Shown here piece by piece: positions 1-52,420 of a DNA stretch of 64,000 nt (within the stretch, counting starts at the first letter, position 1; each line of letters opens with the position of its first letter). This DNA comes from an uncultured Chloroflexia bacterium. Lineage in GTDB: Bacteria > Chloroflexota > Limnocylindria > QHBO01. Where the stretch lies: positions 449,697 to 513,696 of the forward strand of contig CAVSAH010000003.1 of the NCBI GenBank assembly GCA_963725885.1. The letters are read 5' to 3'. The translations under genes were made by a program, and so were the position numbers. The notes below the pieces were generated by a model, which ran no database searches, had not been told where the DNA came from, and saw only the letters and a program-made list of their open reading frames with translations.

Positions 1-686
1 GGCGTCCAGAAGTGGAACGGCACCGCGGCGATCTTGAACGTGCCGCCGACGAGCGCGAACCCGAGCGCCACCAGGATGCCCGCGTTCATCTGCCCGTCGA
101 GCGCGGCCGCGATCCCGGCGATGTTCGTGGTCCCGGTCAGCCCGTAGACCCACGCCACACTGAACAGGAGGATCGCGCTCGCGAAGCTGCCGAGGAGGAA
201 GTACTTCAGCGCACCCTCGTTGCTGTAGCGGTCGGTCTTGTGCAGGCCCGTGAGCAGGTACGAGGGCATCGCCATCAGCTCGAGGCCCAGGAACACGGTG
301 ATGAGGTCGCCGCTCGAGGCGAGGATGCACATGCCGAGGATCGCGCTGACGAGGATCGTCGAGAACTCGCCCAGCGGGATGCGTCGCGAGGTGAGGTACC
401 CCGGGGCGAACAGGGCGCTCAGGATGCCGATGAGGATGGCCGTGGCCTTGAGGAAGACCGAGACGTCGTCGACGACGTAGAACCCGTCGTACACGGTCTC
501 GTTGACGCCCCACACCACGAAGCAGGCGGCTCCGGCGAGCAGCAGGCCGGCGACGGTGAGCGGCGTGAGGAGCCACTTGTCGCGGCGCGGCAGGAACAGG
601 TCGACCGTCAGGACGAGGAGCACCAGGCCCGCCAGCACCAGCTCCGGCAGGATCGTGACGATGTCGTCGAGGAAGGTCAGCTCCAT
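1..686 (-). CDS. nuoN: NADH-quinone oxidoreductase subunit N, first 228 codons (3' end leaves the window)
   Basis: Own translation from ATG at 686: MELTFLDDIVTILPELVLAGLVLL...LGLELMAMPSYLLTG...KYFLLGSFASAILLF...FKIAAVPFHFWTP (antiporter-like NuoN/ND2 signatures). Starts 5 nt after the nuoM stop. No frame break in 686 nt. Absent from the ORF track because it runs off the edge. Confidence 0.88.
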   Translation of the reverse strand, partial: MELTFLDDIVTILPELVLAGLVLLVLTVDLFLPRRDKWLLTPLTVAGLLLAGAACFVVWGVNETVYDGFYVVDDVSVFLKATAILIGILSALFAPGYLTSRRIPLGEFSTILVSAILGMCILASSGDLITVFLGLELMAMPSYLLTGLHKTDRYSNEGALKYFLLGSFASAILLFSVAWVYGLTGTTNIAGIAAALDGQMNAGILVALGFALVGGTFKIAAVPFHFWT

Positions 687-690
687 CGGG

Positions 691-2215
691 TCACCACGGC
701 AGCTCGAAGCCGGTGAGGCCGGCCCCGTTGACGGCCTCGATGATCCGATCGACCGGCACGGCGATCATGTCGAGCACCGGCATCGGGTACACCCCGAGGA
801 CCACCACCAGGACGACGAGCGGGGCGAGCGCGAGCATCTCGCCGCGGCTCATGTCGCGCAGCATCGGCCACCAGCGGTGCATCCAGTCCGACGGCACGGT
901 GAAGAAGGCGCGCTGGAACATCCAGAGCATGTAGACCGCGCTGAGGATGACGACGACCATCGCGCCGGCGGCGACCCACGCCGTTGAAGCTGAAGGCGCC
1001 GATGATGACCAGGAACTCCCCGACGAACCCCGACAGCCCCGGCAGGCCGATGCTCGCGAAGGTGAACAGCCCGAACATGGCCGCGTAGCGCGGCAGCCGG
1101 GCGTTCAGGCCGCCCATGTGGGCGATCTCGCGGTCGTGGGTCTGCTCGTAGATGACGCCGACCAGGAGGAACAGCGCGCCGGTCGTGATGCCGTGGCTGA
1201 TCATCTGGAACACGGCCCCGGACAGCCCCTGCTGGTTGAACACGAACGTGCCGAGCATCACGAAGCCCATGTGGCTCACGCTCGAGTACGCGACCAGCTT
1301 CTTCATGTCGGGCTGGACCATGGCCACCATGGCGCCGTAGATGATCGCCACGATCGCGAGGCCGATGATGATCGGCGCGAACGTCACCGCGGCATCGGGC
1401 AGGATCGGCAGGCTGAAGCGCAGGAACCCGTAGCCGCCGAGCTTCAGCAGGACGCCGGCGAGGATGATCGAGCCGGCGGTCGGGGCCTCGACGTGCGCGT
1501 CGGGGAGCCAGGTGTGGAGCGGCCACATCGGCACCTTGATGGCGAAGGCGAGGAAGAAGGCGAGGAACGCGAGGGCCTGGAGCGTGTCGGTGTAGGGGAA
1601 GCCGCGGAGCGCCTCGTAGCTGAAGGTGAAGTCGTTGCCGCCCGCGGCGTGGGCGATGGCGATCGGCCACGATCGCGACGAGCATGAGCAGCGAGCCCGA
1701 CGAGGGTGTAGATGACGAACTTGACGGTGGCGTAGATGCGTCGCGGCCCGCCCCAGATCCCGATGAGGAAGTACATCGGGAAGAGGCTGACCTCCCAGAA
1801 GACGTAGAAGAGGAACAGGTCGAGCGATACGAAGACGCCGAGCATGCCGACCATGAGCAGCAGCAGCGTGATGTAGTAGCCCTTCACCCTCGTCCCGATC
1901 GGCTCCCACGAGTAGAGGACCGACACCACGCGACAGGAGCGTGGTGAGGATCACGAGCACGACGCTGATGCCGTCGACGCCGAGGGAGTAGCTGATCCCG
2001 AAGGCCTCGATCCACGGAACGTCCTCGCGGAACTGGAACTCGGCGCCGGCGGGGTTGTAGCCGAGCAGCAGCAGCGACAGCCCGAAGCTGACGAGCGTGG
2101 CCAGGAGGGCGATCCAGCGAATCGCGCGCTCCGCCCGACCCGGGACGAAGAGCAGGAGCAGCGCGCCGATCGCCGGCATGAAGACGATGGCCGAGAGCAG
2201 CGGGAAGCCGTCCAT
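691..2215 (-). CDS. nuoM: NADH-quinone oxidoreductase subunit M (frame-disrupted as sequenced; 4 breaks)
   Basis: Five frame segments read [17 protein letters not shown].. / VSVLYSWEPIGTRVKGYYITLLL..WEVSLFPMYFLIGIWGG / LLMLVAIVA / NDFTFSYEAL..KVPMWPLHTWLPDAHVEAPTAGS..KKLVAYSSVSHMGF / MVVVILSAVYMLWMFQRAFF..ELPW. Breaks near 1932, 1695, 1663 and 983. ATG overlaps the nuoL TGA (TGATG). Confidence 0.85.
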
Positions 2216-4435
2216 CAGCGCACCACCGTCGCGTAGGACGAGGAGCACGATCGCCAGCCCCGCGGCGATGCCGAGGCCGTAGTTCTCGACGCGTCCGGTC
2301 TGGATCTTCCGCAGCCAGCCGCCGATCGTCGTCGCGAGCCAGCCGGTGCCGTTGACGAGCCCGTCGATGACCTTGACGTCGAACCACCACAGCGCGTTGG
2401 CCACGAGGACGCCGCCACGCGCGAAGACGAGCCCGTAGATGTCGTCGACGTAGTACTTGTTCAGGCTGGCGCGGTACATGCCCGGCCCGAGGCCGAACGG
2501 GATGCGCTCGCACGAACCGTGCTGGCGCCTCCGGTGTCGCGCACGTACCAGCGATACGCCAGCCACACGCCGAGCGACCGCCACGATCGTGCCGACGCCG
2601 AGCAGGAGGCCGCCGGAGCCGAGAAGGCTGAAGGCATCCTCACCCCGGTCCGTCGGTCGAGCCGGGCAGGACGCCCGCATGCAGCTCCTCGGCCTCGTGG
2701 AAGACCTCCTCCAGCCAGGTGTGGATGACGCCCGCCCTCGGGCGGGATGCCGAGCAGCAGGCCCAGCGAGCGCGGTCGGGACGGCGAGGATGACGAGCGG
2801 GCGCGACCATGGTCGGGCGCTCTCGTGGATGTGGTCCCACACCGCCTTCGGTCCGCGCCACTCGCCCCAGAAGGTCATGAAGATCATCCGGAACGTGTAG
2901 AAGGCGGTCATCAGGGCGACGGTGACGCCGACCACGTAGAAGACGAAGTACCCGTGGTTGAAGGTGACGGCCAGGATCTCGTCCTTGCTGAAGAACCCGG
3001 CGAAGAGCGGGATCCCGGCCAGCGCCAGCGAGCCGATGACCATGGTCAGTAGGTCCAGCGCATCGGCTTGCGCAGGTTGCCCATGAAGCGCATGTCCTGC
3101 TCGCCGCGCGGCGCCGTGGATGACCGAGCCGGAGCCCATGAACAGCAGGCCCTTGAAGAAGCCGTGCGCGACGAGGTGGAAGATGGCCGAGACCCACGCG
3201 CCGACGCCGAGGGCCAGGAACATGTACGCCAGCTGGCTCACCGTCGAGTAGGCGAGGACCTTCTTGATGTCGTTCTGGGTCAGGGCGATGGCCGCCGCGA
3301 AGATGGCGGTGAAGGTCCCGATGGTCGCCACGGTCATCATCGCGACCGGTGCCTCGGCGAAGATCGGGTTGGACCGCGCGACCATGTAGACGCCGGCGTT
3401 GACCATGGTCGCCGCGTGGATGAGGGCGGAGACCGGGGTCGGGCCCTCCATCGCGTCGGGCAGCCAGACGTGGAGCGGGAACTGGGCGCTCTTGCCGACC
3501 GCACCGGCGAACAGGAGCAGCGCGATGATCGTGATCGTCGTCTCGTCGAGCGTGCCGATCGCGCTCGAACACCTCGTGGAAGCTCAGCGTCCCGAGGTTG
3601 ACCCAGATCATGGCGACACCGAGGCCGAAGCCGAGGTCGCCGATGCGGTTGACGACGAAGGCCTTCTTGGCCGCGCCGGCCGCCGAGGGCTTCTTGTACC
3701 AGAAGCCGATGAGCAGGTAGCTGCACAGGCCGACCGCCTCCCAGCCGACGTACAGCAGCAGGAAGTTGTCGGCCAGGATCAGCAGCAGCATGCTGAACAT
3801 GAACAGGTTGAGGTAGGCGAAGAAGCGCCACAGCCCGCGGTCGCCGTCCATGTAGCCGATCGAGTAGACGTGGACGAGGAAGCCCACCGTGCTCACGACC
3901 AGCAGGAGCATGGCGGTCAGCGCGGTCGACGAGGAAGCTGATGTCGACCTCGAAGTCGCCCGATGCGATCCAGCGGTAGATCGTGACCTCGTACTCGTTG
4001 CCGCCGAAGATGACGTCGACGAAGACGACCATGCTGAGCGCCCACATGATCCCGACCAGGAGCGTCGGGACGATCCACGACCGGTATCGCGGCCGCTCGG
4101 CCCCCGGGGCGACGTGCCCGGCCTGCCCGAGCCCGTCGTTCAGGTCGGCGGGGATGACCCCGGCTGCGCCCTCGGCGTTGGCGAGGTCGTCGGCGTGGCC
4201 GGCGTGCGGGCTGGTGGCCGCCTGCTCCTCCTCGGTCGGGATGCCGCGGAACGCGGAGTCGTCGACGTCGTGAGCATCGTGCGCGTCGTGTGACGCATCG
4301 GCTTCGTGGTGGTCATCGTCGTGACCGTGGCCGTGGAGGGGGATGCGATCGAGCCGCGGGCCGATGGCGACGGCGAACAGGAACCCCGCGAGGGGCAGCG
4401 CCGGGAAGGAGGGCGATCAGCAGCTCGATGGGCAT
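2215..4435 (-). CDS. nuoL: NADH-quinone oxidoreductase subunit L with a His/Asp-rich N-terminal loop insertion (frame-disrupted as sequenced; about 11 breaks)
   Basis: Segments [10 protein letters not shown] / [32 protein letters not shown] / [45 protein letters not shown] / ..[39 protein letters not shown] / [19 protein letters not shown] / [26 protein letters not shown].. / ..[21 protein letters not shown]. Breaks near 4403, 3925, 3560, 3105, 3045, 2760, 2730, 2645, 2572 and 2508, plus one before the TGA at 2215-2217. Confidence 0.8.
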
Positions 4436-4439
4436 CGGC

Positions 4440-4746
4440 CTACTCCTTGAGGTCGGAGTACTGGTCGACCTCGGCGGTCTGTCGCGTGCGGATGATGGCG
4501 ATGACGAGGGCCAGGCCGACGGTCACCTCGGCGGCCGCGACGGCCATGATCATCAGCGAGAAGACCGCGCCCGTGTTCGATCGCCGGCGGCAGGTAGGCG
4601 TTGAAGGCCACGAGGCTCAGGTTCACCGCGTTGAACATGAGCTCGATGCTGATGAGCATGAGGATCGCGTTGCGCCGCGCCAGGAAGCCGAACGTGCCGA
4701 TCCCGAACAGCAGCGCGGAGACGAGCAGGTACCCCTCGATGCCCAT
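4440..4746 (-). CDS. nuoK: NADH-quinone oxidoreductase subunit K (1 frame break)
   Basis: [52 protein letters not shown], then in the next frame [41 protein letters not shown]. Break near 4567. Length is 307 nt (306+1). Confidence 0.88.
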
Positions 4747-4749
4747 CGA

Positions 4750-5262
4750 TCAGTTCGCCCGCTCGTCCTCTTCCGGGCCGTCGTGCCAGGAAGATGGCTC
4801 CGATGATCGCCACGAGCAGGAGCATGGCGATGATCTCGAACGGCAGCGCGTAGGTCGGTGAAGATCGCGGTGGCGATGGCGTCCACGCTGGCGGCGACGG
4901 CCTCGGTCGCGAGGCCCCAGTCGGTCTGGACGACGGCCCAGCCGACGAGCCCGGTCACGATCAGCGCGACGACGGCGGCGATCGGCAGCTGGCGGTGGAA
5001 CGGTGCCGGCAGGTTCGCGTCGCCGGCCTGGGTGAGCATGATCGCGAAGAGGATCAGGACGCTGATCGCGCCGAGGTAGATGAGCACCTGCGCGGCCGCC
5101 ACGATCGGCGCGCCGAGCAGCGCGTACATGCCGGCGAGTGACCCGAAGCAGATCATCATCGCGACGGCGCGAGTGGATGATGTTGCGGAGCGTGACGACG
5201 GCGAGTCCGCCCCCGATGACGCCGATGGCGAGCAGGAAGAAGAGGACGCTGGAGATGTCCAG
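4750..5262 (-). CDS. nuoJ: NADH-quinone oxidoreductase subunit J (3 frame breaks; start codon uncertain, CTG behind GGGAG)
   Basis: LDISSVLFFLLAIGVIGGGLAVVTLRNIIHS / AVAMMICFGSLAGMYALLGAPIVAAAQVLIYLGAISVLILFAIMLTQ.. / YALPFEIIAMLLLVAIIGAIFLARRP / EEDERAN*. Breaks near 5170, 4855 and 4775. There is no ATG/GTG/TTG in frame; GGGAG lies 9 nt upstream of the CTG at 5262. Confidence 0.8.
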   Translation of the reverse strand: MDISSVLFFLLAIGVIGGGLAVVTLRNIIHSRRRDDDLLRVTRRHVRAARRADRGGRAGAHLPRRDQRPDPLRDHAHPGRRREPAGTVPPPAADRRRRRADRDRARRLGRRPDRLGPRDRGRRRQRGRHRHRDLHRPTRCRSRSSPCSCSWRSSEPSSWHDGPEEDERAN

Positions 5263-5323
5263 GGTCGTGGGCTCCCGTTGCTGTTCGAGCGCTCGACGGC
5301 CCCGCTCGGGAGGCCGTCGCTCG

Positions 5324-5329
5324 ATTCTA
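5324..5329 (-). promoter_or_regulatory. Candidate internal -10 element (TAGAAT) in the only sizeable gap of the nuo cluster, upstream of nuoJ
   Basis: Minus strand reads ctgcgcTAGAATcgagcg inside the 150-nt gap 5263-5412. It is followed about 55 nt later by GGGAG and the nuoJ start. Confidence 0.3.
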
Positions 5330-5412
5330 GCGCAGGCTCGGCTTCGATCGGTCTCCCGCTCGTGCAGTGGTCAGGACGAGCGCCATCGAGCTCGGCCTGC
5401 CGCGACATCGGT

Positions 5413-7787
5413 CTAGCGGGTTGGTCGCTCCCGGTCGGACATCTCGAGGATGTCGAGCATGGGCAGGTCGCGCTGGTACTCGCTGAACTCGAACTCCGGG
5501 CCGCAGCGCAGCGCGTCGTACGGGCAGGCATCGGCGCAGATGCCGCAGAAGATGCAGCGGCTGATGTCGAGCTGGTAGGTCTCGAGGATGCGCGGGCGCG
5601 GCATGAGCGCGCCGACCGGGCACGTCTCCGCGCATCGGCCACATGACACGCACGGGGTCTCGTTCAGCGATACGAAGTCCGCGGTCGTGACGAGCGAGTC
5701 GAAGCCCTTGCCGATGAAGTCGTAGCAGCCGGCGCCGACGATCTCCTTGCAGACCTGGGCGCATCGGCCGCAGTCGATGCAGCGGGAGTAGTCGCGCAGG
5801 ATGAAGCTGTGGGTCTCGTCGCGGCCGTAGCCGTGGTTGACGCCGACGTACGGGTTGTCCTGGATCGAGCGCTCGTCGATCGCCATGTTCAGCGTCGTCT
5901 CGTACTCGATCGCCGCCTCGCGAAGGTCGCAGTGGCCGATCGCCTCGCAGGTGCACTGCAGGCAGCGTGACGCCTCGGCCATGGCCTGGTCGCCGGTGTA
6001 GCCGTGCTCGTACTCGTCGAAGTTCGTGCGGCGCTCGTCGGCGCCGAGCTTGCCCATGATCGCCTTCGGCTCCTTCACGTCGTCGGTGAAGGGGACGATC
6101 GTCAGGAAGTTCGGCTGCGGCTCGGTGACGATGCGGCGGACCTGCGGATCGTCGAGGTCGTGGCCGCGCAGCCAGTAGTCCATGGCGTACGACGCGCGCC
6201 GCGCCTCTCCGATCGCCTCGACGACGGTGGCGGCTCCGGTGCGCACGTCGCCCGAGGCGAAGATCTTCGGGACGTTGGTGCGGAAGATGTGCTCCTCGGC
6301 GACGAGGTTGCCGCGCCGGTCCACCTCGAGCCCCGCGCGAATCTCCTCGGGCTCGGACTCGATCCATGACAGCTCCGGGCCCTGACCGATGGCGCCCGAG
6401 CACGGTGTCGCACTCGACGATGAACTCGGTGCCGGGCATCGGCTCCGGCCGGCGGCGGCCCTGCGCGTCGGGCTCGCCCAGCTTCATGCGCTGGAACTCG
6501 ACGCCGGAGACCTTGCCGTTCTCGCCGGTGACCATGCGCGTCGGAGCGGCCTGGAAGATGAGGCGCGCGCCCTCCTCGATGGCCTCGTGCGCCTCGTCGG
6601 CTGGCCGGCATGTCCTTGAGGTCGCGGCGGTAGACGAGGGTCACCTCGGCTGCGCCCTGGCGGACGGAGGTCCGCGTGCAGTCGATGGCCGTGAATCCGC
6701 CGCCGATGACGACGACGCGAGCGCCCTTCAGGCGCGGAATGGGAATGCCGCGCGTCGAGTTGTAGAGGTTCTCGAGGGCGTTGACCATGCCGTCGGCGTC
6801 CTCTCCGGGGATGCCGAGCTCGTTCGACTTGTAGCAGCCGATGCCGACGTAGATGGCGTCGTACTCGTCGATGATGTCGCCGAGGTGGAAGTCGCGGCCG
6901 AGCCGCATGTTCGGCTTGAACGTCGCGCCGAGCTCCCAGACGTGGTTGAGCTCGCGGTCCATCCAGCCCTTGGGGAGGCGGTACTCGGGAATCCCGTAGC
7001 GGAGCATGCCGCCCTGCTCGGGATCGGCCTCGAACACGTCGCAGTGGTGGCCCCGCAGCTGGAGGTAGTACGCCGCGGTCATGCCGGCCGGGCCGGCGCC
7101 GATCACGGCCACCTTGCGTCCGCTGTCCGGCTCCTTCGGCCACGGGATCGGCGCGGGAGCATCGACCTCGAGGACCCGATCGGCGCAGTACCGATGCGAG
7201 TCGCGGATGGCGATGGCGGTGTCCACCTCCTCGCGGCGGCAGTGCGTCTCGCACGGTGCCGGGCAGACGCGCCCGAGGATGGCGGGGAAGGGAAGCGACC
7301 GCTTCAGGATCCGCGTCGCCTCTTCCCAGTTCCCGAGCGTGTTCTGCTTGAGGTAGCCGGGAATGTCGACGCGGGTCGGGCACTTGAACTGGCACGGCGG
7401 CAGGCAGTACGCGTCGTGGTCGCTGAAGATGAGCTCGAGGACCATGCGCCGGTTCTCGACGACGCGATCGGAATGGGTGGTGATGACCATCCCTTCCTCG
7501 ATGGCGGTCCCGCACGAGATCGGGGTGTCGTCGCGCCCTTCCACCTCGACGGTGCAGATGCGGCACGCGCCGTACGGGGCGAGCTTGGGCTCGTAGCACA
7601 GCGTCGGGATCTCGATCCCGAGGACCCGACAGGCCTGGAGGATGGTCTGGCCCTCCTCGGCCTCGACCTCGGCGCCGTTGATCGTGACGGTGATCTTCCG
7701 GGTGCCGGGGACCATCGGCCACAGCGGCGTGTAGTCATGCGGCTGCCCGTTGCCCGAGCCGTTGCCGTTCGTGCCTGAGAAGCTCAT
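5413..7787 (-). CDS. Chimeric Fe-S flavoprotein: NuoG/HydA-type 2Fe-2S domain + GltD/NfnB-like NAD(P)H-FAD oxidoreductase + NuoG-type 4Fe-4S domains + NuoI C-terminal half (2 frame breaks)
   Basis: MSFSGTNGNG..LCYEPKLAPYGACRICTVEVEG..ISCGT; CLPPCQFKCPTRVDIPGY..RVCPAPCETHC; VAVIGAGPAGMTAAYYL; VVVIGGGFTAIDC; KIFASGDVRTGAATVVEAIGEARRA; RCLQCTCEAIGHCDL; CIDCGRCAQVC; CVSCGRCAETCPVGAL; LDISRCIFCGICADACPYDAL..EFEFSEYQRD. Breaks near 6602 and 6398. Start is 9 nt after the nuoF-like stop. Confidence 0.8.
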
Positions 7788-7795
7788 CGGTCCCT

Positions 7796-9146
7796 CTACT
7801 CTAGCCCGGCCAGCGGCGGGGCGAGCGGGGGCACCTCGGCGGTGGTGCAGGAGCCGGCCAGGCAAACGCCGCGCTCCGCGTGGGCGCGGTACTCGTCGCC
7901 GAATCGGTCGAGCGTGGTGAGGATCGGGCCCGGCGCCAGGCTCTCGAGCTTGCAGAGCGCGGTGTCGCTCATCTTTCGGGACAGCTCGCGCAGGAGCGTG
8001 ATGTCGTCCGGCCGCGGGGTGGCGGCCAGGATGCGGTCGAGAGCCTCGACCAGGCGCTGGGTGCCGATGCGGCACGGCACGGCCTTGCCGCAGGCCTCTC
8101 GCGCGCTGAAGTCGACGAAGAAGCGTGCCGCGTCGACCATGCAGGTCGCGCGGTCGGCGACGAGCACCGAGCCCGAGCCGATGATGGCCCCCGCAGCGGT
8201 GAGCGGCTCGTAGTCGTAGGCGAGCGTGAACGAGCCGGCATCGATGGCGCCACCGCCGGGGCCTCCCACGAAGACGGCCTTCGGCTTCCCGGTCGGGCCG
8301 CCGGCAGCCTCGACGAGGTCGAGCAGCGAGATGCCCAGCGGCACCTCGATGAGCCCCGGCTCGGCCACGCGGCCCATGATCGTCACCAGCTTGGTGCCGC
8401 GGCTGGCCTCGGTGCCGATCGAGGCGAACGCCTCGGCCGAGTGCGAGGCGATCCAGGCCACGTGAGCGAGGGTCTCGGCGTTGTTCACGACGGTCGGGTC
8501 GCCGCGCAGGCCCGAGGCGGCGGGGTACGGCGGACGGATGGCCGGCATGCCGCGGTCCCCGGAGAGCGCGTTGAGCAGCGCGGTCTCCTCACCGGCGACG
8601 TACGCGCCGGAGCCCTCCCACACCGAGAGCTGGATGCTCGTGTCGGTGCCCATCACGAGGTAGCCCGCCAGGTGCGCCTCGGTCGCCTCGCGCACCGCGG
8701 TGCGCAGCCGGTCGATGGCAAGCGTCCAGTCGCGACGGACGGCGATGATCGCCTCTCCGGCGCCGATGGCGTAGGCGGCGATGAGCAGGCCCTCGATGAC
8801 CAGGTGAGGGTTGCCCTCGACCAGTGCGCGGTCGCCGAGCGCGCTCGGGATCCGCGCCCATGACATTGGCGACGGCCACCTTCCGCGACGCGTCGACGCC
8901 ACGCGCCACGCGCCACTTGTCGGCTGTCGGGAACCCCGACCCGCCACGGCCGCGCAGGCCCGCTGCGTCGATCTCGGCGATGACCTCGCCGGGCGAGAGC
9001 TTGGTCAGCGCCCGCTCCAGCCCCGCATAGCCGCCGTGCTCGCGATAGCTGGCGAGGCTGCCGGGGTCGACCCGACCGATGTCGGTGAGCACGCGCGGCT
9101 CACCGCCGGTGAGGATTCGAATCTGGGGCGAGATGGCACTGGTCAT
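7796..9146 (-). CDS. nuoF: NuoF-like NADH dehydrogenase flavoprotein subunit (1 frame break; one N3-cluster Cys replaced)
   Basis: GLRGRGGSGFPTADKW; GSGAYVAGEETALLNALSG; IRPPYPAASGLRGDPTVVNNAETLAHV; GTKLVTIMGRVAEPGLIEVPLG; EACGKAVPCRIGT (canonical CGKCxPCR); TALCKLESLAPGP. Break near 8848. ATG overlaps the upstream TGA by 1 nt. Confidence 0.85.
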
Positions 9147-10000
9147 CAGCTCACCGTTGCCTCGGCGGGCCTGGAGCCGGCGGCCCGGGAGTCGGCGGCC
9201 CGGCGCTCGGTCAGCAGATGGCGCGCCTTCTCCGGGGTCAGCGGGCCGTAGACGAGCGTGTCGATGCGCATGGCCGGCACGATCGAGCCGGAGGCCACGT
9301 CCGGCGCGAGCTGCAGGCTGAAGGCGCCGTCGGGGGTCTCGGAGCCGGCGCGGATCCCGAGCTCATCCTCGACGGCCGCGAGCAGCTCCTGGCCGCCCGC
9401 GAAGCGGCACGCGGCGCAGTCGCACACCGTGACGAGGTGGCCGGTGACGGGCAGGAGACGGAACCCGCCGAGTCCTGCCGCGCCGAAGACCTGCGCCCAG
9501 TGGATGCTCATCCGGTCGCTGACGTGTCGGAGCGCGCGCTCGGGCAGGTAGCCGTAGCGCTCCTCGATCACGCGGAAGATCGCCACCAGCGCCTCCGGCC
9601 TGCCGTCGTGCGCGTCGATCGTCGCGTCGACGAAGGCGGTGTCGACCTCGGCATCCCAGCGCGCCGCGTTGCGCATCGGCCTCGCCGGCTGACCGGCGCG
9701 TCGCCAGGCGTTGGGGTCCTTGCGCTCGTCGTAGATCTCCGGCATGCCGTAGCGGATCCGGTTGCCCTGCGAGTCGAACCCGCTCATGTCGATCGCCTCG
9801 ACCGGGCAGACCTGGGCGCACTGGAAGCAGACCTCGCACTTGTGATCGCCGAACGGGTCGTAGATGAGGTCGAGCCGGCCTCGCCAGCGCTCCGGCATCT
9901 GCGGCCGCTCCTCGGGGTACTGGCGCGTCACCTTCGGGGCGAAGAAGTTGCGGAAGGTGGTGGCCATGCCCTTGGCCATCCCGGAGCCGGGAATCCTCAT
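9146..10000 (-). CDS. Chimera of the NuoI N-terminal half (one 4Fe-4S motif) with a NuoE-like thioredoxin-fold domain
   Basis: Intact 284-aa ORF. N-terminus reads GMATTFRNFFAPKVTRQYPEERPQMPERWRGRLDL..CEVCFQCAQVCPVEAI (NuoI leader plus first CxxCxxCxxxCP). From about residue 125 it reads ALVAIFRVIEERYGYLPERALRHVSDRM..VTVCDCAACRFAGGQELL..TLVYGPLTPEKARHLL (NuoE fold). Confidence 0.8.
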   Translation of the reverse strand: MRIPGSGMAKGMATTFRNFFAPKVTRQYPEERPQMPERWRGRLDLIYDPFGDHKCEVCFQCAQVCPVEAIDMSGFDSQGNRIRYGMPEIYDERKDPNAWRRAGQPARPMRNAARWDAEVDTAFVDATIDAHDGRPEALVAIFRVIEERYGYLPERALRHVSDRMSIHWAQVFGAAGLGGFRLLPVTGHLVTVCDCAACRFAGGQELLAAVEDELGIRAGSETPDGAFSLQLAPDVASGSIVPAMRIDTLVYGPLTPEKARHLLTERRAADSRAAGSRPAEATVS

Positions 10001-10013
10001 CGGTCGCGGGCCC

Positions 10014-11024
10014 TCACAGGTCGAGGACGACGACGGCGATGGCCGTGACGAACAGGTTGACCAGGGCCAGGGGCAGGAGGACCTTCCAGGCCATGCCCAT
10101 CAGCTGGTCGACGCGCACGCGCGGGAGCGTGCCACGCATCCACACCGCGATCGTCACGAAGATGTAGGTCTTGAGGAAGAACCAGAAGGCACCGTAGATC
10201 GTCCCCCAGAAGCCGTCGAGCTGCGCCGGGAACGGCCACGGCGCGAGCCAGCCGCCGAAGAAGAGGCTGATCAGGATGCCGCTCATGATGAAGAGCGCGA
10301 CGTACTCGGCGAAGAAGAAGAACCCGAAGCGCATGCCCGAGTACTCGGTGAACGGCCCGGCCACCAGCTCGGAGTCCGCCTCGACCATGTCGAACGGCGT
10401 GCGGTTGATCTCGGCCAGGCTGGCGATGTAGAAGATCACGACCCCGACCGGCTGCCAGACCAGCATCCAGCCGTGCTCGAGCTGCCAGTCGATCAGCTCG
10501 CTGAAGCTGAGCGTCCCGGCCAGCACCACCGCGCCGACGATCGACAGGGTGAGCGGGATCTCGTAGCTCACCATCTGCGCCGCGCTGCGCAGCCCGCCGA
10601 GCAGCGAGTACTTGTTGTAGCTGGCCCACCCCGCCACCAGCAGCCCGACCACCGACAGCCCCAGGACGGCGAAGAAGTAGACGATGCCGATGTTCATGTC
10701 CGAGGCGATGGCGCCGGGCGCGAAGGGGATGACCAGCATGCTCATCGCCGCGGCCATGTAGACCATCCACGGCGCCAGCGTGAATGTGCCGCGGTCGGCC
10801 TGGTCGGGGACGGTGTCCTCCTTGGCCAGCACCTTGAAGCCGTGAATGGTCGACTGGAACATCCCCTTCGGGCCGATGCGGTTCGGCCCGTAGCGCAGCG
10901 CCAGCTGCGCGATGATCTTCATCTCCATCTGGATGATGATGAAAGCGGTCGGCACGGTGAGCAGCAGCAGCAGCGTGGTCGCCAGGATGAATCGGCCGAT
11001 GCCGAGCAGCAGCTCCCAATCCAT
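10014..11024 (-). CDS. nuoH: NADH-quinone oxidoreductase subunit H
   Basis: Intact 336-aa ORF: RYGPNRIGPKGMFQSTIHGFKVL..SLLGGLRSAAQMVSYEIPL..LAEINRTPFDMVEADSELVAGPFTEYSGMRFGFFFFAEY. Confidence 0.95.
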   Translation of the reverse strand: MDWELLLGIGRFILATTLLLLLTVPTAFIIIQMEMKIIAQLALRYGPNRIGPKGMFQSTIHGFKVLAKEDTVPDQADRGTFTLAPWMVYMAAAMSMLVIPFAPGAIASDMNIGIVYFFAVLGLSVVGLLVAGWASYNKYSLLGGLRSAAQMVSYEIPLTLSIVGAVVLAGTLSFSELIDWQLEHGWMLVWQPVGVVIFYIASLAEINRTPFDMVEADSELVAGPFTEYSGMRFGFFFFAEYVALFIMSGILISLFFGGWLAPWPFPAQLDGFWGTIYGAFWFFLKTYIFVTIAVWMRGTLPRVRVDQLMGMAWKVLLPLALVNLFVTAIAVVVLDL

Positions 11025-11027
11025 CGG

Positions 11028-12311
11028 CTACTTGTCCACGCCGCCCATGACCGGGTCGAAGCTCGCCATCACCGCCATCGTATCGGCGAGAAGGCGCCCG
11101 GGCATGATCTTGGGCAGCGCCTGGAGGCTGATGAAGCTGGGGTCGCGCATGCGGAACCGATACGGGTTCGGCCCGCCGTCGCTGATGGCGTAGACGCTGT
11201 AGAGACCCCGCGGGGACTCCACCGCCCCGTAGGCGCGTCCCGGCTTGGGCCGGATGATGCCCGGCACCTGGGCCTGGACCGGGCCGTGCGGCATCTTGTC
11301 GATGATCTGGTCGATGAGGTGGATGCTCTGCTTGATCTCCGCGATGCGCTGGAGATACCGCGAGTAGGAGTCACCGGCCTCGTGGGTGATGACGTCGAAC
11401 TCGAGCTCGTGGTAGATCGAGTAGGGGTGCGCCTTGCGCACGTCGAACGGTACCCCCGAGGCCCTCAGGTTCGGCCCGGTGACGCCGAGCGCGATGGCCT
11501 CGTCGCCGGTCAGCACGCCCATCCCCTTGGTACGCGCCGTGAAGATCTCGTTCTCCGTGATCATGTGCTCGTTCATCTCGATGTTCTTCAGGACGCCCGA
11601 GCGCCACGTACCGAGGCGGCTCAGGAACTCGTCGTTCGTGTCCCAGTTCACGCCGCCGACGCGGAAGAAGTTGAACAGCATGCGCTGGCCGCTGATCGCG
11701 GACAGCATGTCGACGACCTCGTCGCGGTTGATGAAGCTGTACAGGATCGGGGTCAGCCCGCCCATGTCCAGGGCCAGGAATCCCATCATCAGCCCGTGGC
11801 TGAAGACGCGGTTCAGCTCGACGACGAGTGCGCGGATGTACTCGGCCCGCGGCGGGGCCTTGATGCCGTAGAGCTTCTCGAACGCGATCGCCGGCGCGTG
11901 CTCGTTGTGCATCGTCGACAGGTAGTCCATCGGGTCGACGTAGGTGAGCACCGTGGTGTACGTCGCGTTCTCGCACAGCTTCTCGATGCCGCGGTGCAGG
12001 TAGCCCAGCACCGGGTCGATGTCGACGATGACCTCGCCCCGTACCTTGACCACGATGCGCATCACGCCGTGCGTGGAGGGGTGCTGCGGCCCGAGGTTGA
12101 TGAGCATCTCGCCCTCGTTGAGGGTGTAGACCTCGGCCTCGCGCTCGGACTGCGGCGGTCGGTCCGGGATCCCGACGGACTCGAAGCCGGCGTACTCGCC
12201 CTCGGATGTCGGGTCGGGGCCGATCCCGGCCGCGGCACGCAGGCGCGCCTCCTCCTCCCGATCCAGCTCGATCGGGTCGGGAATCCGGGTCTCGGGATCG
12301 ACGGCGGTCAT
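11028..12311 (-). CDS. nuoD: NADH-quinone oxidoreductase subunit D
   Basis: Intact 427-aa ORF: LINLGPQHPSTHGVMRIVVKVRGEVIVDIDPVLGYLHRGIEK..GVTGPNLRASGVPFDVRK..VESPRGLYSVYAISDG..DPSFISLQALP. ATGA overlap with nuoC. Confidence 0.96.
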   Translation of the reverse strand: MTAVDPETRIPDPIELDREEEARLRAAAGIGPDPTSEGEYAGFESVGIPDRPPQSEREAEVYTLNEGEMLINLGPQHPSTHGVMRIVVKVRGEVIVDIDPVLGYLHRGIEKLCENATYTTVLTYVDPMDYLSTMHNEHAPAIAFEKLYGIKAPPRAEYIRALVVELNRVFSHGLMMGFLALDMGGLTPILYSFINRDEVVDMLSAISGQRMLFNFFRVGGVNWDTNDEFLSRLGTWRSGVLKNIEMNEHMITENEIFTARTKGMGVLTGDEAIALGVTGPNLRASGVPFDVRKAHPYSIYHELEFDVITHEAGDSYSRYLQRIAEIKQSIHLIDQIIDKMPHGPVQAQVPGIIRPKPGRAYGAVESPRGLYSVYAISDGGPNPYRFRMRDPSFISLQALPKIMPGRLLADTMAVMASFDPVMGGVDK

Positions 12312-12946
12312 CGCGGTCGGCTCTCGTCGGCGTCGATATCGCTGCCGGTCAGCGCTGCAGCCGGGCGCTCGGCGGTGTCGAGCGGCGGGCGAGGCACCCC
12401 GGGCGCGTCACGGAAGCGGGCGAGGTCCCACGTCTCCGGGCGCTCGAGCGGGTTGACGCCCGCCGCAGGCGAGTCGGCGGCGTCGTCGGGCAGGATGAAG
12501 TCCTTGCGCTGCGGGAACGACCGGTAGTCGGGGGACATGTAGATCCGGCGCAGGTCGCGGTTGCCCTCGAAGACGATGCCCATCATGTCGTACATCTCGC
12601 GCTCGTGGAACATCGCGCCCTCCCACAGGCCGGTGACCGACGCGATGCGCGGATCGGCGCGGTCGACGCGCGCACGAACCCGCAGCCACGCCGGGTGGCG
12701 CCAGCTGAACAGGTGGTACACGACCTCGAAGTGGGCGTCGACGCCGTAGTCGACCGCCGCCTCGTCGGCGAGCATGAAGAAGGCGAGCTCGGGCTCGTCG
12801 CGCGCCGCGGTCAGCAGGTCGAGCGCACGCGCGCCCTCGACGACGATCTCGACGGTGTCCTCGTCGGTCGAGAGCTGGATGATGTCGGCCCCGAACCGCT
12901 CGGTGAGAGATCGGACGAGCGACCCGGCGGCTGCGGGGGCGCTCAG
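12308..12946 (-). CDS. nuoC: NADH-quinone oxidoreductase subunit C (start uncertain: CTG behind AAGGAG, or GTG at 13003)
   Basis: ..[92 protein letters not shown] lies 7 nt upstream of the CTG that overlaps the nuoB TGA (CTGA). Confidence 0.85.
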
Positions 12947-13654
12947 CGGACGTCTCCTTCCCAGCGCACGCGCTGCGGCCCGCGGTCGACGAACGTGCGC
13001 CACTCGCCGCGACGCTGCTTGACGAGCTCGTGGAGCTTCATCATCCCGTAGATGAGCCCCTCCGGCCGGGGTGGGCAGCCCGGGACGTAGACGTCGACGG
13101 GCATGACCCGGTCGACGCCCTGGACCACGGAGTAGGAGCGCTTGAACCGGCCACCGGAGGTCGTGCAGGTGCCCATCGCCACGACCCACTTCGGCTCGGG
13201 CATCTGCTCCCACAGTCGGACCAGGGGCCCCGCCATCTTCGTCGTCAGCGTCCCGGCCACGATCAGCACGTCCGCCTGCCGCGGGCTGGCGCGGAACGGG
13301 AACATGCCGAACCTGTCGATGTCGTTCTTGCTCGTCGCCGTGCTCATCATCTCGATCGCGCAGCAGCTCAGGCCCGACAGCAAGCGGCCACAGCGAGTTG
13401 GCGCGGATGAGGTCGAGGATGTAGTCGGCCTTGGTCGGGATGACCTCCAGCAGGCCGTGGAAGCCACCCACCGGATGGTCGTCCATGGAGAACGGCGTCA
13501 GCAGCGCGTCGCCCTGGGCCGCGTCGGGGATGATGATCGGCGCGGCGCGCTCGGTCGTGACGAGGCCGGTGTCCCGGCCCGCATCGGTCACGAGCTCGGC
13601 CGAGGTGGCATCCGCGGCCTTCGTGCGCTTGCGACCGGACTTGCTCACTGCCAT
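12943..13654 (-). CDS. nuoB: NADH-quinone oxidoreductase subunit B (1 frame break)
   Basis: [27 protein letters not shown], then in the next frame [77 protein letters not shown]. Break near 13385. Confidence 0.9.
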
Positions 13655-14004
13655 CGCAGGTCCCCCTTCTTCCATGCGTAGAGCTCGCCGAACATGAGGA
13701 TCGTCAGGAAGACGCCGATGAGGATGATCCCCTGGAACTCGAGCGCCCGCACGGTGATGGCCCACAGGTACACGAAGATGATCTCGACGTCGAAGGAGAC
13801 GAAGAGCAGCGCGTAGAGATAGAAGGCGAGCCCGAATCGGCTCCACGTGTCGCCGATGGTGTCGACGCCCGACTCGTAGGGCAGGCCCTTCTGGGGCCGT
13901 CGACGCCGATGCGTGATCAGCCAGGAAAAGGCGATCGTGCCGAAGACGAAGATCGTCGCGGCGAATCCGAAGCCGATGACGTACAGCAGGCCGGTGTGAT
14001 CCAT
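13645..14004 (-). CDS. nuoA: NADH-quinone oxidoreductase subunit A
   Basis: 119 aa from the internal ATG at 14004: [70 protein letters not shown]. The longer track ORF (to 14265) is an upstream read-through. Confidence 0.92.
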   Translation of the reverse strand: MDHTGLLYVIGFGFAATIFVFGTIAFSWLITHRRRRPQKGLPYESGVDTIGDTWSRFGLAFYLYALLFVSFDVEIIFVYLWAITVRALEFQGIILIGVFLTILMFGELYAWKKGDLRWQ

Positions 14005-36963: not shown

Positions 36964-37038
36964 GCCGAAGTAGCTCAGGGGTAGAGCAACGGTTTCGTAA
37001 ACCGTCGGTCGTGGGTTCGAATCCCACCTTCGGCTCCA
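36964..37038 (+). tRNA. tRNA-Thr (anticodon CGT), CCA encoded
   Basis: Hand-folded cloverleaf: acceptor GCCGAAG/CTTCGGC, D arm GCTC-AGGGGTA-GAGC, anticodon arm ACGGT-TTCGTAA-ACCGT, T arm GTGGG-TTCGAAT-CCCAC, discriminator T, then CCA. Confidence 0.9.
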
Positions 37039-52343: not shown

Positions 52344-52420
52344 TGGTGCCCCCAACCGGATTCGAACCGGTGATCTCCACCTTGAAAGGGTGGCGTCCTA
52401 GGCCTCTAGACGATGGGGGC
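52344..52420 (-). tRNA. tRNA-Glu (anticodon TTC), CCA encoded
   Basis: Reverse complement GCCCCCATCGTCTAGAGGCCTAGGACGCCACCCTTTCAAGGTGGAGATCACCGGTTCGAATCCGGTTGGGGGCACCA. Anticodon arm is CCACC-CTTTCAA-GGTGG; typical Glu D arm. Confidence 0.9.

Follow-up and report, generated by a model that had tools for sequence, protein, structure and literature searches.

A complex I operon of an uncultured Chloroflexota bacterium with an NfnABC/StnABC-type flavoprotein module inside a split nuoI

We examined the complex I (nuo) gene cluster on a 64,000-nucleotide stretch of DNA from an uncultured Chloroflexia bacterium (GenBank assembly GCA_963725885.1, contig CAVSAH010000003.1, forward-strand positions 449,697 to 513,696). 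This whole stretch, with a G+C content of about 70%, is called the window below. The cluster is a real respiratory complex I operon, but in place of the usual genes for NADH input it has three genes for a flavoprotein module of the NfnABC/Stn type, which lie inside a split nuoI. On the minus strand the genes form a single cluster in the order nuoA-B-C-D-H, g1, g2, g3 and nuoJ-K-L-M-N, where g1, g2 and g3 are the module genes. An orthologous cluster with intact frames (L001) was used as the reference for the tblastn searches, for the position of insertions and for the ratios of nonsynonymous to synonymous substitution (dN/dS). The genes detected were the following.

13648-14004, minus strand: nuoA (tblastn with the L001 NuoA, 95% identity, single stretch)
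~12946-13654, minus strand: nuoB, the N2-cluster subunit (tblastn, two stretches in different frames; one single-base insertion at 13381)
~12308-12949, minus strand: nuoC, orthologue-matched part (tblastn, 81% identity over residues 19-228)
11028-12311, minus strand: nuoD, intact, 427 residues (open reading frame, ORF; tblastn, 94.6% identity over the full length)
10014-11024, minus strand: nuoH, intact, 336 residues (ORF; tblastn, 97% identity over the full length)
9146-10000, minus strand: g1, intact, 284 residues (Pfam, NCBIfam, PDB; 541 full-length homologues)
7796-9146, minus strand: g2, 449 residues in orthologues (Pfam, NCBIfam, PDB; one frameshift at ~8847)
5413-7787, minus strand: g3, 790 residues after frame repair (Pfam, NCBIfam, PDB; frameshifts at ~6602 and ~6397)
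~4753-5220, minus strand: nuoJ, three single-base frameshifts (tblastn, four stretches in three frames)
4443-4746, minus strand: nuoK, one frameshift (tblastn, two stretches)
~2216-4434, minus strand: nuoL, frameshifted (tblastn, three main stretches)
~691-1996, minus strand: nuoM, three frameshifts (tblastn, four stretches)
3-680, minus strand: nuoN, first 226 codons, truncated by the window end (tblastn, 84% identity)

The end of g1 overlaps the start of g2 by one base, and g2 and g3 are separated by 8 bases with GAGGGA in the gap; given this spacing, the genes are read as a single operon. The membrane subunits NuoA, H, J, K, L, M and N and the Q-module subunits NuoB, C and D were found co-encoded in both the window and L001, according to tblastn and Pfam. 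In the translations of the L001 orthologues, NuoB has the cysteines of the N2 cluster (including PGCPPRPE) and NuoD has the His and Tyr of the quinone site (GPQHPSTHG and GYLHRG), and the window copies of these two proteins are 95-97% identical to those orthologues. No other nuoE-, nuoF-, nuoG- or nuoI-like sequence and no single-chain nuoI was detected with tblastn in the 64-kb window. An earlier note, made by reading the letters of this DNA, had given the same gene order and coordinates, which the ORFs and tblastn bear out, and had reported that separate nuoE, nuoG and nuoI genes are missing from the locus, which agrees with tblastn across the 64-kb window. All the motifs that it quoted were also located where it had placed them.

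The domains and motifs of the three module genes were the following.

9743-10000, minus strand: NuoI N-half of g1, residues 1-86, with the motif CEVCFQCAQVCP at 9803-9838 (TIGR01971 positions 1-73 on residues 11-84)
9206-9628, minus strand: NuoE/NfnC-like thioredoxin-fold domain of g1, residues 125-265 (PF01257 2Fe-2S_thioredx, E 7e-23)
8804-8870, minus strand: nucleotide-site loop of g2, ANVMGAD-P-SALGDR (StnB/NfnB alignment; spans the frameshift)
8063-8098, minus strand: N3/B1 cluster motif of g2, EACGKAVPCRIG (the second cysteine of CxxCxxC is alanine)
7470-7700, minus strand: 2Fe-2S (N1b-type) domain of g3, residues 30-106 (PF13510 Fer2_4, E 1.8e-20)
7377-7424, minus strand: SDHDAYCLPPCQFKCP, N-terminal part of the His-type (N5-like) motif of g3 (cysteines invariant)
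6151-7403, minus strand: GltD/NfnL-like domain of g3 with two 4Fe-4S sites (PF14691 Fer4_20, PF07992 Pyr_redox_2, gltD family models)
7062-7112, minus strand: motif GAGPAG of g3, for flavin adenine dinucleotide (FAD) (motif located)
6678-6716, minus strand: NADPH motif GGGFTAIDC of g3 (motif located)
6603-6644, minus strand: VYRR of g3 (motif located)
5923-5967, minus strand: RCLQCTCEAIGHCDL, C-terminal part of the His-type (N5-like) cluster motif, 3' of the GltD insertion (L085 comparison)
5617-5781, minus strand: NuoG/StnC-type ferredoxin-like domain of g3, CIDCGRCAQVC and CVSCGRCAETCP (PF22117 Fer4_Nqo3; StnC/NfnA alignment)
5413-5604, minus strand: NuoI C-half, g3 residues 728-790, with RILETYQLDISRCIFCGICADACPYDALRCGPEFEFSEYQRD at 5467-5592 (TIGR01971 positions 71-112 on residues 732-773)

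We found that the NuoI model TIGR01971 of NCBIfam (121 positions) is divided between two chains, its positions 1-73 falling on g1 and 71-112 on g3. When residues 1-86 of g1 were joined in silico to the g3 tail, the product scored 110.9 bits against this model over positions 1-112 (cut-off 113.05), and the next best family matches in NCBIfam were all NuoI equivalogs. Among solved structures, the joined halves also matched NuoI of E. coli (7awt_I, E 1e-24), TYKY of plants, Nqo9 of Thermus and further chains, each in one stretch running across the junction, and T25, Y28, P29, R40, G41, the eight cysteines and both prolines were invariant between them and NuoI of E. coli and Arabidopsis. The eight cysteines of the two halves were all invariant in the related loci as well, where both halves were present in every locus with readable ends (49 out of 49) and the g3 tail was almost identical across the 49. 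Finally, the joined halves of three distant loci (L085, L088 and L086) scored 111.7, 94.7 and 74.5 bits, respectively, with NuoI as the best family in each case; for this reason the predicted split NuoI plug is a recurrent design and not a local accident. CIFC of g3 and CEVC of g1 are the sole unpaired cluster motifs, because CIDC and CVSC of g3 pair with each other in a ferredoxin-like domain of the Nqo3/StnC type.

In g1, the residues C55, C58, C61, C65 and P66 of the NuoI N-half were invariant in 77 out of 77 related sequences and in all the distant fusions too. The following NuoE/HoxE-type domain was placed by NCBIfam at residues ~116-267. Its 2Fe-2S site comprises three cysteines only (VCDCAAC, 9407-9427), the second cysteine pair being absent; these three (C193, C195 and C198) are invariant, while more distant fusions retain all four 2Fe-2S cysteines. 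The two parts of g1 are connected by a linker, IYDERKDPNAWRRAGQPARPMRNAARWD (residues 87-124, window 9628-9742), which is conserved within Limnocylindria and is likely to run along the outside of a neighbouring subunit.

The g2 protein is a short NuoF-like subunit, to which Pfam assigned only the Complex1_51K, SLBB and NADH_4Fe-4S domains, and its score against the NCBIfam nuoF_fam model (329 bits) was under the cut-off of 558. It aligned to residues 103-524 of the 584 residues of StnB only, and neither the N-terminal thioredoxin-like domain (B5) nor the C-terminal 2x[4Fe-4S] ferredoxin-binding domain (B3/B4) was detected in g2 with Pfam or in the StnB alignment. The N3/B1 motif reads CGKAVPC, with alanine in 67 out of 67 sequences and C398 also kept. 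The motif beside the flavin mononucleotide (FMN) has three cysteines in three lineages, with a different loss in each: CGKAVPC (window 8063-8098), CGKTIPC (L088, 3766-5091) and CGRCVPG (L084, 953-2257); the long-NuoF variants retain CGKCVPC. Since exactly three cysteines stay in each lineage, the site in g2 appears to have been reshaped into a centre with three cysteines, possibly 3Fe-4S, and not to have lost its cluster. Around the nucleotide site, GRGG-x-G[FY]PT, K77-W78, GEETAL and RPPYP were invariant or nearly so in the 67 sequences, and binding of FMN and NADH is likely to be retained because of this near-invariance of the glycine-rich loop and the other three motifs. The loop N[LV]MGADP[ST]ALGDR stands in place of the canonical NADE(G/S)(D/E)PGxFxDR. 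The glutamates of GEET are kept in g2; in E. coli NuoF they reportedly disfavour NADPH (Morina et al. 2011), although a literature search gave no confirmation of this for Glu183. An H-x5-C-x4-C stretch is kept at the C-terminus of g2 and resembles the start of the ferredoxin region in StnB/NfnB; this remnant may be the counterpart of the StnB/NfnB zinc site (PMC11829005).

The third gene, g3, starts with a 2Fe-2S domain whose cysteines C64, C75, C78 and C92 are invariant. Its GltD-like part matched NfnB/NfnL of solved structures (4ylf_B, E 1e-89; 5jca_L, E 2e-80), with all the FAD, NADPH and YRR motifs intact; YRR is the site of the NADP(H) phosphate in T. maritima NfnB (bioRxiv 10.1101/717884). 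The distant locus L085 has an uninterrupted NuoG-type motif, SNHNADCRDCSSTEICTLRE, which in g3 is divided as SDHDAYC...[GltD-like domain]...RCLQCTCEAIGHCDLRE, and the GltD-like domain is thus inserted within the His-type cluster motif. As a separate observation, the first ~35 positions of Fer4_20 lie 3' of the FAD domain, so that the GltD part of g3 is circularly permuted relative to a stand-alone GltD. Moreover, His198 and the invariant Cys201 of g3 (window ~7185-7196) occupy the position of StnC Lys170 and T. sibiricus (Tsi) NfnA Lys165, the lysine that ligates the 4Fe-4S cluster adjoining the FAD (PMC10482914). No molybdopterin-type domain was found in g3 with Pfam or NCBIfam, and g3 residues 30-755 aligned with residues 2-700 of StnC and 4-699 of NfnA.

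Among solved structures, g1, g2 and g3 were closest to the chains C, B and A of the C. saccharolyticus NfnABC (9bov; E 1.9e-24, 1e-126 and 4e-164, respectively), followed by Sporomusa StnABC (8oh5; chain 8oh5_C against g3, E 7e-151) and Thermococcus NfnABC (9n5u). NuoE, NuoF and NuoG (Nqo2, Nqo1 and Nqo3) were far weaker matches (Nqo1 against g2, E 4e-79), and NuoG covered just the first ~100 residues of g3. The gene order, NuoE-like, NuoF-like and then the large subunit, is that of stnABC. In g3 we found the characters of an NfnA/StnC-type large subunit and also those of GltD/NfnB, i.e. two N-terminal 4Fe-4S sites, FAD and NADPH Rossmann motifs and YRR. The bifurcating site of Bfu enzymes consists of FMN, B1 and C1, and B3/B4 pass electrons to ferredoxin (PMC11829005, PMC12018979). 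A Bfu flavobicluster has a four-ligand B1 [4Fe-4S] and C1 [2Fe-2S]; here each of these sites has three invariant cysteines, and g2 does not carry the B1-B5 set of BfuB. We infer that the input module is an imported cassette of the NfnCBA/StnABC (Bfu) type and not a rebuilt NuoEFG. The reading of this cassette as inserted in nuoI (nuoABCDH-[nuoI]-JKLMN, an 11-subunit order) follows from the gene order and the homology.

These results bear on most of what the earlier note had proposed for the module. It had an N module inserted into nuoI, giving NuoI-N::NuoE and NuoG-N::GltD::NuoI-C chimeras; the insertion and the chimeras stand, and its view of a rebuilt NuoEFG gives way to an imported NfnCBA/StnABC-type module. 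NuoI-like segments at both ends are placed by TIGR01971 on g1 and g3, Pfam and NCBIfam agree with an intact g1 that opens like NuoI and continues as a NuoE-type domain, and Pfam recovered the three domains expected of a NuoF-like g2. The domain string read in g3 (Fer2_4, Fer4_20, Pyr_redox_2 and a Fer4 dicluster, with no molybdopterin domain) was likewise found with Pfam. The GltD domain models and the intact NADPH motifs are in line with the second, NADPH-type flavin site that the note had suggested, and the synteny it had asked about was kept, in the order of the three genes, in 80 out of 80 loci.

A protein search with g1 recovered 541 homologues (E <= 1e-3, 90% clusters), the best 120 of which were all ~280 residues long. 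At least 516 species genomes encode a relative of g1 (one genome per species was scanned), and the best 80 of them were almost all labelled as Limnocylindria or Chloroflexota metagenome-assembled genomes (MAGs). Synteny was identical in all 80 related loci (L003-L082) as far as the contigs reach; an assembly chimera as the source of the layout is ruled out by this identical order. The search with the C-terminal ORF of g3 returned fragments only and no full-length proteins. Where the source had named the copies, they bore labels such as "NADH-quinone oxidoreductase subunit E" or "formate dehydrogenase major subunit", and the layout is invisible in current annotation because of these generic names. 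More distant fusions of the g1 type (29-52% identity) were found in the following arrangements.

L088: nuoD-H, the fusion, NuoF of 441 residues, g3-like protein of 861 residues, nuoJ
L083: nuoA-B-C-D-H, the fusion, long NuoF with an N-terminal 2Fe-2S domain
L085: nuoH, the fusion, 1048-residue NuoF with C-terminal GltD, 265-residue NuoG-N ending in the NuoI C-half, nuoJ-N
L086: soluble cluster with pyruvate:ferredoxin oxidoreductase genes

Positions 1321-6023 of L085 hold a second split-NuoI layout of complex I, in which NuoI-N::NuoE has all four 2Fe-2S cysteines and the 1048-residue chain combines a 2Fe-2S domain, NuoF and GltD with a canonical CxxCxxC motif; the protein search gave two close sequences only for its 265-residue protein, and the variant is rare. 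The g3 homologues of the L088 type (P0276-P0390) form a large second clade, 55-60% identical, with a few labelled as Dormibacteraeota or Limnocylindrales. They extend ~70 residues past the NuoI C-half, with a conserved YVRRERDW...LPMLP and a His/Gly-rich end. In L086 (1804-7726) and L087, a full-length BfuB stands beside pyruvate:ferredoxin oxidoreductase genes in a soluble cluster; in L086 it is flanked by a NuoE-like protein with a NuoI-like N-half and by a StnC-like protein with a NuoI-like C-half, which continues into a PorB thiamine-pyrophosphate domain. The split plug is also present outside complex I, because in L086/L087 the halves flank a BfuB linked to pyruvate:ferredoxin oxidoreductase. 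As for the rest of the window, its only RNA genes were a tRNA-Thr (CGT; 36964-37038, plus strand) and a tRNA-Glu (TTC; 52344-52420, minus strand), and no other Rfam family was above threshold within the window.

Taking these data together, we consider it likely that the operon encodes a proton-pumping complex I whose input arm was gained as an Nfn-type cassette, with NuoI split between two chains and NAD(P)H as the input, probably without bifurcation. A three-gene module of the NfnCBA/StnABC type would have come to lie within the nuoI of an operon of the 11-subunit type (nuoABCDHIJKLMN), and with the module inside nuoI its first gene carries the NuoI N-half and its last gene the C-half. The two halves would then join as one 2x[4Fe-4S] fold holding N6a and N6b, and this fold would dock the module on NuoB/D/H and wire it to N2 and the quinone site. 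NADPH would deliver its electrons to the FAD in the GltD-like part of g3. In Thermus complex I, the His-type motif of N5 holds the final NuoG cluster on the way to NuoI. Because the GltD-like domain is inserted in the N5-like motif, electrons of NADPH are predicted to enter the chain beside the split NuoI and to pass through N6a and N6b to N2 and quinone. NADH would probably enter also, at the FMN of g2, its electrons travelling through the 2Fe-2S and ferredoxin-like clusters, and the same wiring would permit transhydrogenation between NADPH and NAD+. With the flavin site of g2 and the clusters around it altered, either flavin may be the main entry point. The enzyme is probably not bifurcating, given that the B3/B4 and B5 domains are gone and the B1 and C1 sites are reduced to three cysteines; its activity would most likely be that of an NAD(P)H:quinone oxidoreductase, perhaps combined with transhydrogenation between NADPH and NAD+ inside the enzyme. 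In a broader and more tentative form, which we regard as possible but somewhat doubtful, a portable Nfn-type cassette would use a split NuoI-like ferredoxin as its docking plug, onto complex I in Limnocylindria and related lineages, where an 11-subunit enzyme would have become a proton-pumping quinone reductase fed by NADPH and NADH, and onto pyruvate:ferredoxin oxidoreductase in other bacteria, with three-cysteine (possibly 3Fe-4S) centres on the FMN side and bifurcation switched off.

Several points weigh against the likely reading of a split-NuoI complex I with NAD(P)H input. The AlphaFold2 models were of too low confidence to be informative: the predicted local distance difference test (pLDDT) was 36 for the two NuoI halves, joined and run from one sequence, and 40 for the last 303 residues of g3, run from an alignment with 45 homologues. 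NuoE is distant from NuoI in the canonical enzyme, so the conserved linker of ~40 residues in g1 must bridge that distance or the geometry of the arm must differ. The tblastn search for further nuoE-, nuoF-, nuoG- or nuoI-like sequences covered the 64-kb window, so that a canonical complex I or a standalone nuoI may be encoded elsewhere in these genomes, and the operon of this window has ~12 frameshifts. Two acidic positions on the flavin side are substituted in g2 (NADE to N[LV]MG), the Tyr of its GAY is Leu in 25 out of 67 sequences, and NADH entry at g2 may have been lost. The last of these points lead to a reading in which the GltD-like FAD is the sole catalytic site, g1 and g2 are scaffold and the complex I is NADPH-specific. 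Besides the altered loop (N[LV]MGADP instead of NADE(G/S)(D/E)PG) and the Tyr to Leu change, it is favoured by the loss of an N3 cysteine in three lineages, different in each, and by a g1 2Fe-2S site without two of its cysteines. However, we judge it unlikely, as the four FMN/NADH-site motifs of g2 are near-invariant, its dN/dS is 0.15, the GEET glutamates that reportedly disfavour NADPH in E. coli NuoF are kept, and exactly three invariant N3 cysteines fit a retained cluster better than a loss. The closeness of g1-g3 to the bifurcating NfnABC/StnABC, together with the prediction of Nuo-Bfu complexes with mid-cluster BfuABC genes (PMC9304861), could also speak for a ferredoxin-dependent confurcating or bifurcating complex, passing electrons from NAD(P)H and reduced ferredoxin to quinone; yet g2 is without the ferredoxin-binding B3/B4 and thioredoxin-like B5 domains, and the flavobicluster sites B1 and C1 have three cysteines each, which makes this reading highly improbable. 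An enzyme working mainly in reverse, with the proton-motive force and quinol producing NADPH for biosynthesis, would match the known reversibility of complex I. Such a reverse role has been put forward for complex I of Sulfurimonas, which has an NfnB-like subunit (bioRxiv 10.1101/717884). The sequence is nevertheless silent on direction, and we hold this alternative to be improbable.

Two further alternatives concern NuoI itself and the state of the operon. The earlier note had offered, as a second reading, that CVSC and CIFC of g3 already form a complete NuoI-like dicluster, the N-terminus of g1 being a remnant without clusters. In its favour, Fer4_7 and Fer4_9 cover CVSC-CIFC as one dicluster (residues 225-271 of the 303-residue ORF), and tblastn aligns the CVSC region with the g1 motif. 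This would however leave CIDC unpaired, since in the Nqo3/StnC domain it pairs with CVSC; the g1 motif is invariant throughout the 77 sequences and the distant fusions, and g1 matches NuoI 1-73 including an N-terminal part that has no counterpart in g3. The second reading of the note therefore falls away in favour of the split NuoI, with hardly any likelihood left to it. As for the operon, g1, nuoD and nuoH are unbroken and g2, g3 and nuoB/J/K/L/M are frame-broken when compared with L001. We counted ~12-13 net frame-breaking single-base insertions, at window positions 600-8900 and ~13381 (nuoB, g2, g3 and nuoJ-M). Against the intact orthologous cluster, g2 has one insertion (~8847) and g3 has two (~6602 and ~6397), and removal of these two bases from g3 yields the 790-residue protein, collinear with the intact orthologues. 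The phase of G+C at third codon positions (GC3) switches 13 times in the first 8 kb versus 3-5 times per 4 kb in most of the remaining window, where the coding-phase changes equal the number expected from gene boundaries; the breaks are therefore locally enriched. Their number and their enrichment would fit a recently inactivated pseudogene cluster in this one genome, with the family functional elsewhere, a reading that we find distinctly unlikely. On the other side, dN/dS against L001 is similarly low whether the frame is broken (g3 0.09, nuoJ 0.05) or intact (nuoD 0.06, nuoH 0.04; g1 has 0.24), every break is a single-base insertion, and no stop-creating substitutions or larger deletions were seen in the operon. 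Similar breaks occur in other long-read 'MFD' MAG loci and in none of the short-read MAG loci. Because of the low dN/dS in broken genes, the exclusive single-base insertions and the confinement of breaks to long-read MAGs, the frameshifts of the window are most likely consensus errors of long-read assembly. The architecture does not depend on them, because intact copies exist elsewhere. A decaying remnant at the level of the whole family was considered for the three genes and is ruled out by their dN/dS (0.09-0.24) and invariant cysteines.

Complex I is usually regarded as strictly NADH-linked, with a fixed NuoEFG input and a single-chain NuoI. If the split-NuoI reading is true, a widespread uncultured class of Chloroflexota would run a complex I with a core subunit divided between two others, and such a 2x[4Fe-4S] fold, built jointly by two chains, would be an example from nature of a split ferredoxin that serves for docking. 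A soluble bifurcating transhydrogenase would be the source of the input arm, which would bring a second, NADPH-type flavin; an energy-conserving NADPH:quinone oxidoreductase of this kind would alter the balancing of the NADPH and NADH pools. It would also be a second, independent case of complex I gaining an electron-input module, which bears on the evolution of complex I, and would offer a natural relative of NfnABC with bifurcation switched off for mechanistic work.

The closest enzymes, NfnABC/StnABC (S. ovata 8oh5, C. saccharolyticus 9bov and T. sibiricus 9n5u), are built from the three subunit types found here, encoded in the same order, and their large subunit, like g3, combines a 2Fe-2S domain, an inserted GltD/NfnL-like FAD/NADPH domain and a two-cluster ferredoxin-like domain (PMC10482914, PMC12018979). 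Those enzymes are soluble and bifurcating, whereas the module described here lies in a complex I operon. It differs further in that g3 is without the formate-dehydrogenase-like C-terminal domain and ends in the NuoI C-half, the NuoE-like part of g1 is preceded by the NuoI N-half, g2 is without the thioredoxin-like and ferredoxin-like domains, the FMN-side clusters have three cysteines each, and His198/Cys201 stand at the cluster-ligating Lys of StnC/NfnA. With canonical complex I (T. thermophilus Nqo1-14, E. coli NuoA-N) it shares all the membrane subunits, NuoB, C and D, and the NuoI-type, NuoE-like, NuoF-like and NuoG-N-like parts, and the wiring is expected to be the same, from flavin through the FeS clusters to N6a/N6b, N2 and quinone. 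The order here is A-B-C-D-H-[I(N)-E]-F-[G-GltD-I(C)]-J..N, compared with A..N in the canonical case. Unlike canonical complex I, it has NuoI on two chains, an extra FAD/NADPH domain, an altered N1a (three cysteines in g1) and N3 (CGKAVPC in g2) and a NuoG-like chain, g3, without the molybdopterin-like domain.

Nuo-Bfu complexes were predicted in Geobacter, Deferribacteres, Planctomycetes and Nitrospirae by Schut et al. 2022, who also reported Por-Bfu and Mbh-Bfu clusters (PMC9304861). As at the locus examined here, Bfu-type subunits replace the NADH module of Nuo-Bfu and their genes lie mid-cluster; in contrast, Nuo-Bfu has 14 subunits, a full BfuB (B1-B5) and a predicted confurcation of NADH and ferredoxin (PMC9304861). 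No GltD-like domain is given for it there, the words 'NuoI' and 'fused' are absent from the text, and the survey demanded a ferredoxin-type domain in BfuB, so that proteins of the g2 type would have been passed over. GltD-like proteins have entered related enzymes as separate subunits: in Sulfurimonas denitrificans (Suden_1824; Campylobacterota) an NfnB/GltD-like subunit with a proposed NADP(H) site replaces NuoF (bioRxiv 10.1101/717884), and in Mbx-like operons a GltD-like protein replaces NuoI (PMC4758237). Here, by comparison, GltD is a domain inside the NuoG-like chain, a NuoE-like and a NuoF-like subunit remain next to it, and the NuoI sequence is divided over two chains. We found no publication describing this arrangement in the open-access literature, and the earlier note had likewise known of none. 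The layout may be new, and its nearest precedents are the predicted Nuo-Bfu complexes, the replacement of NuoF by an NfnB-like subunit in Sulfurimonas and the Mbx-like operons with GltD.

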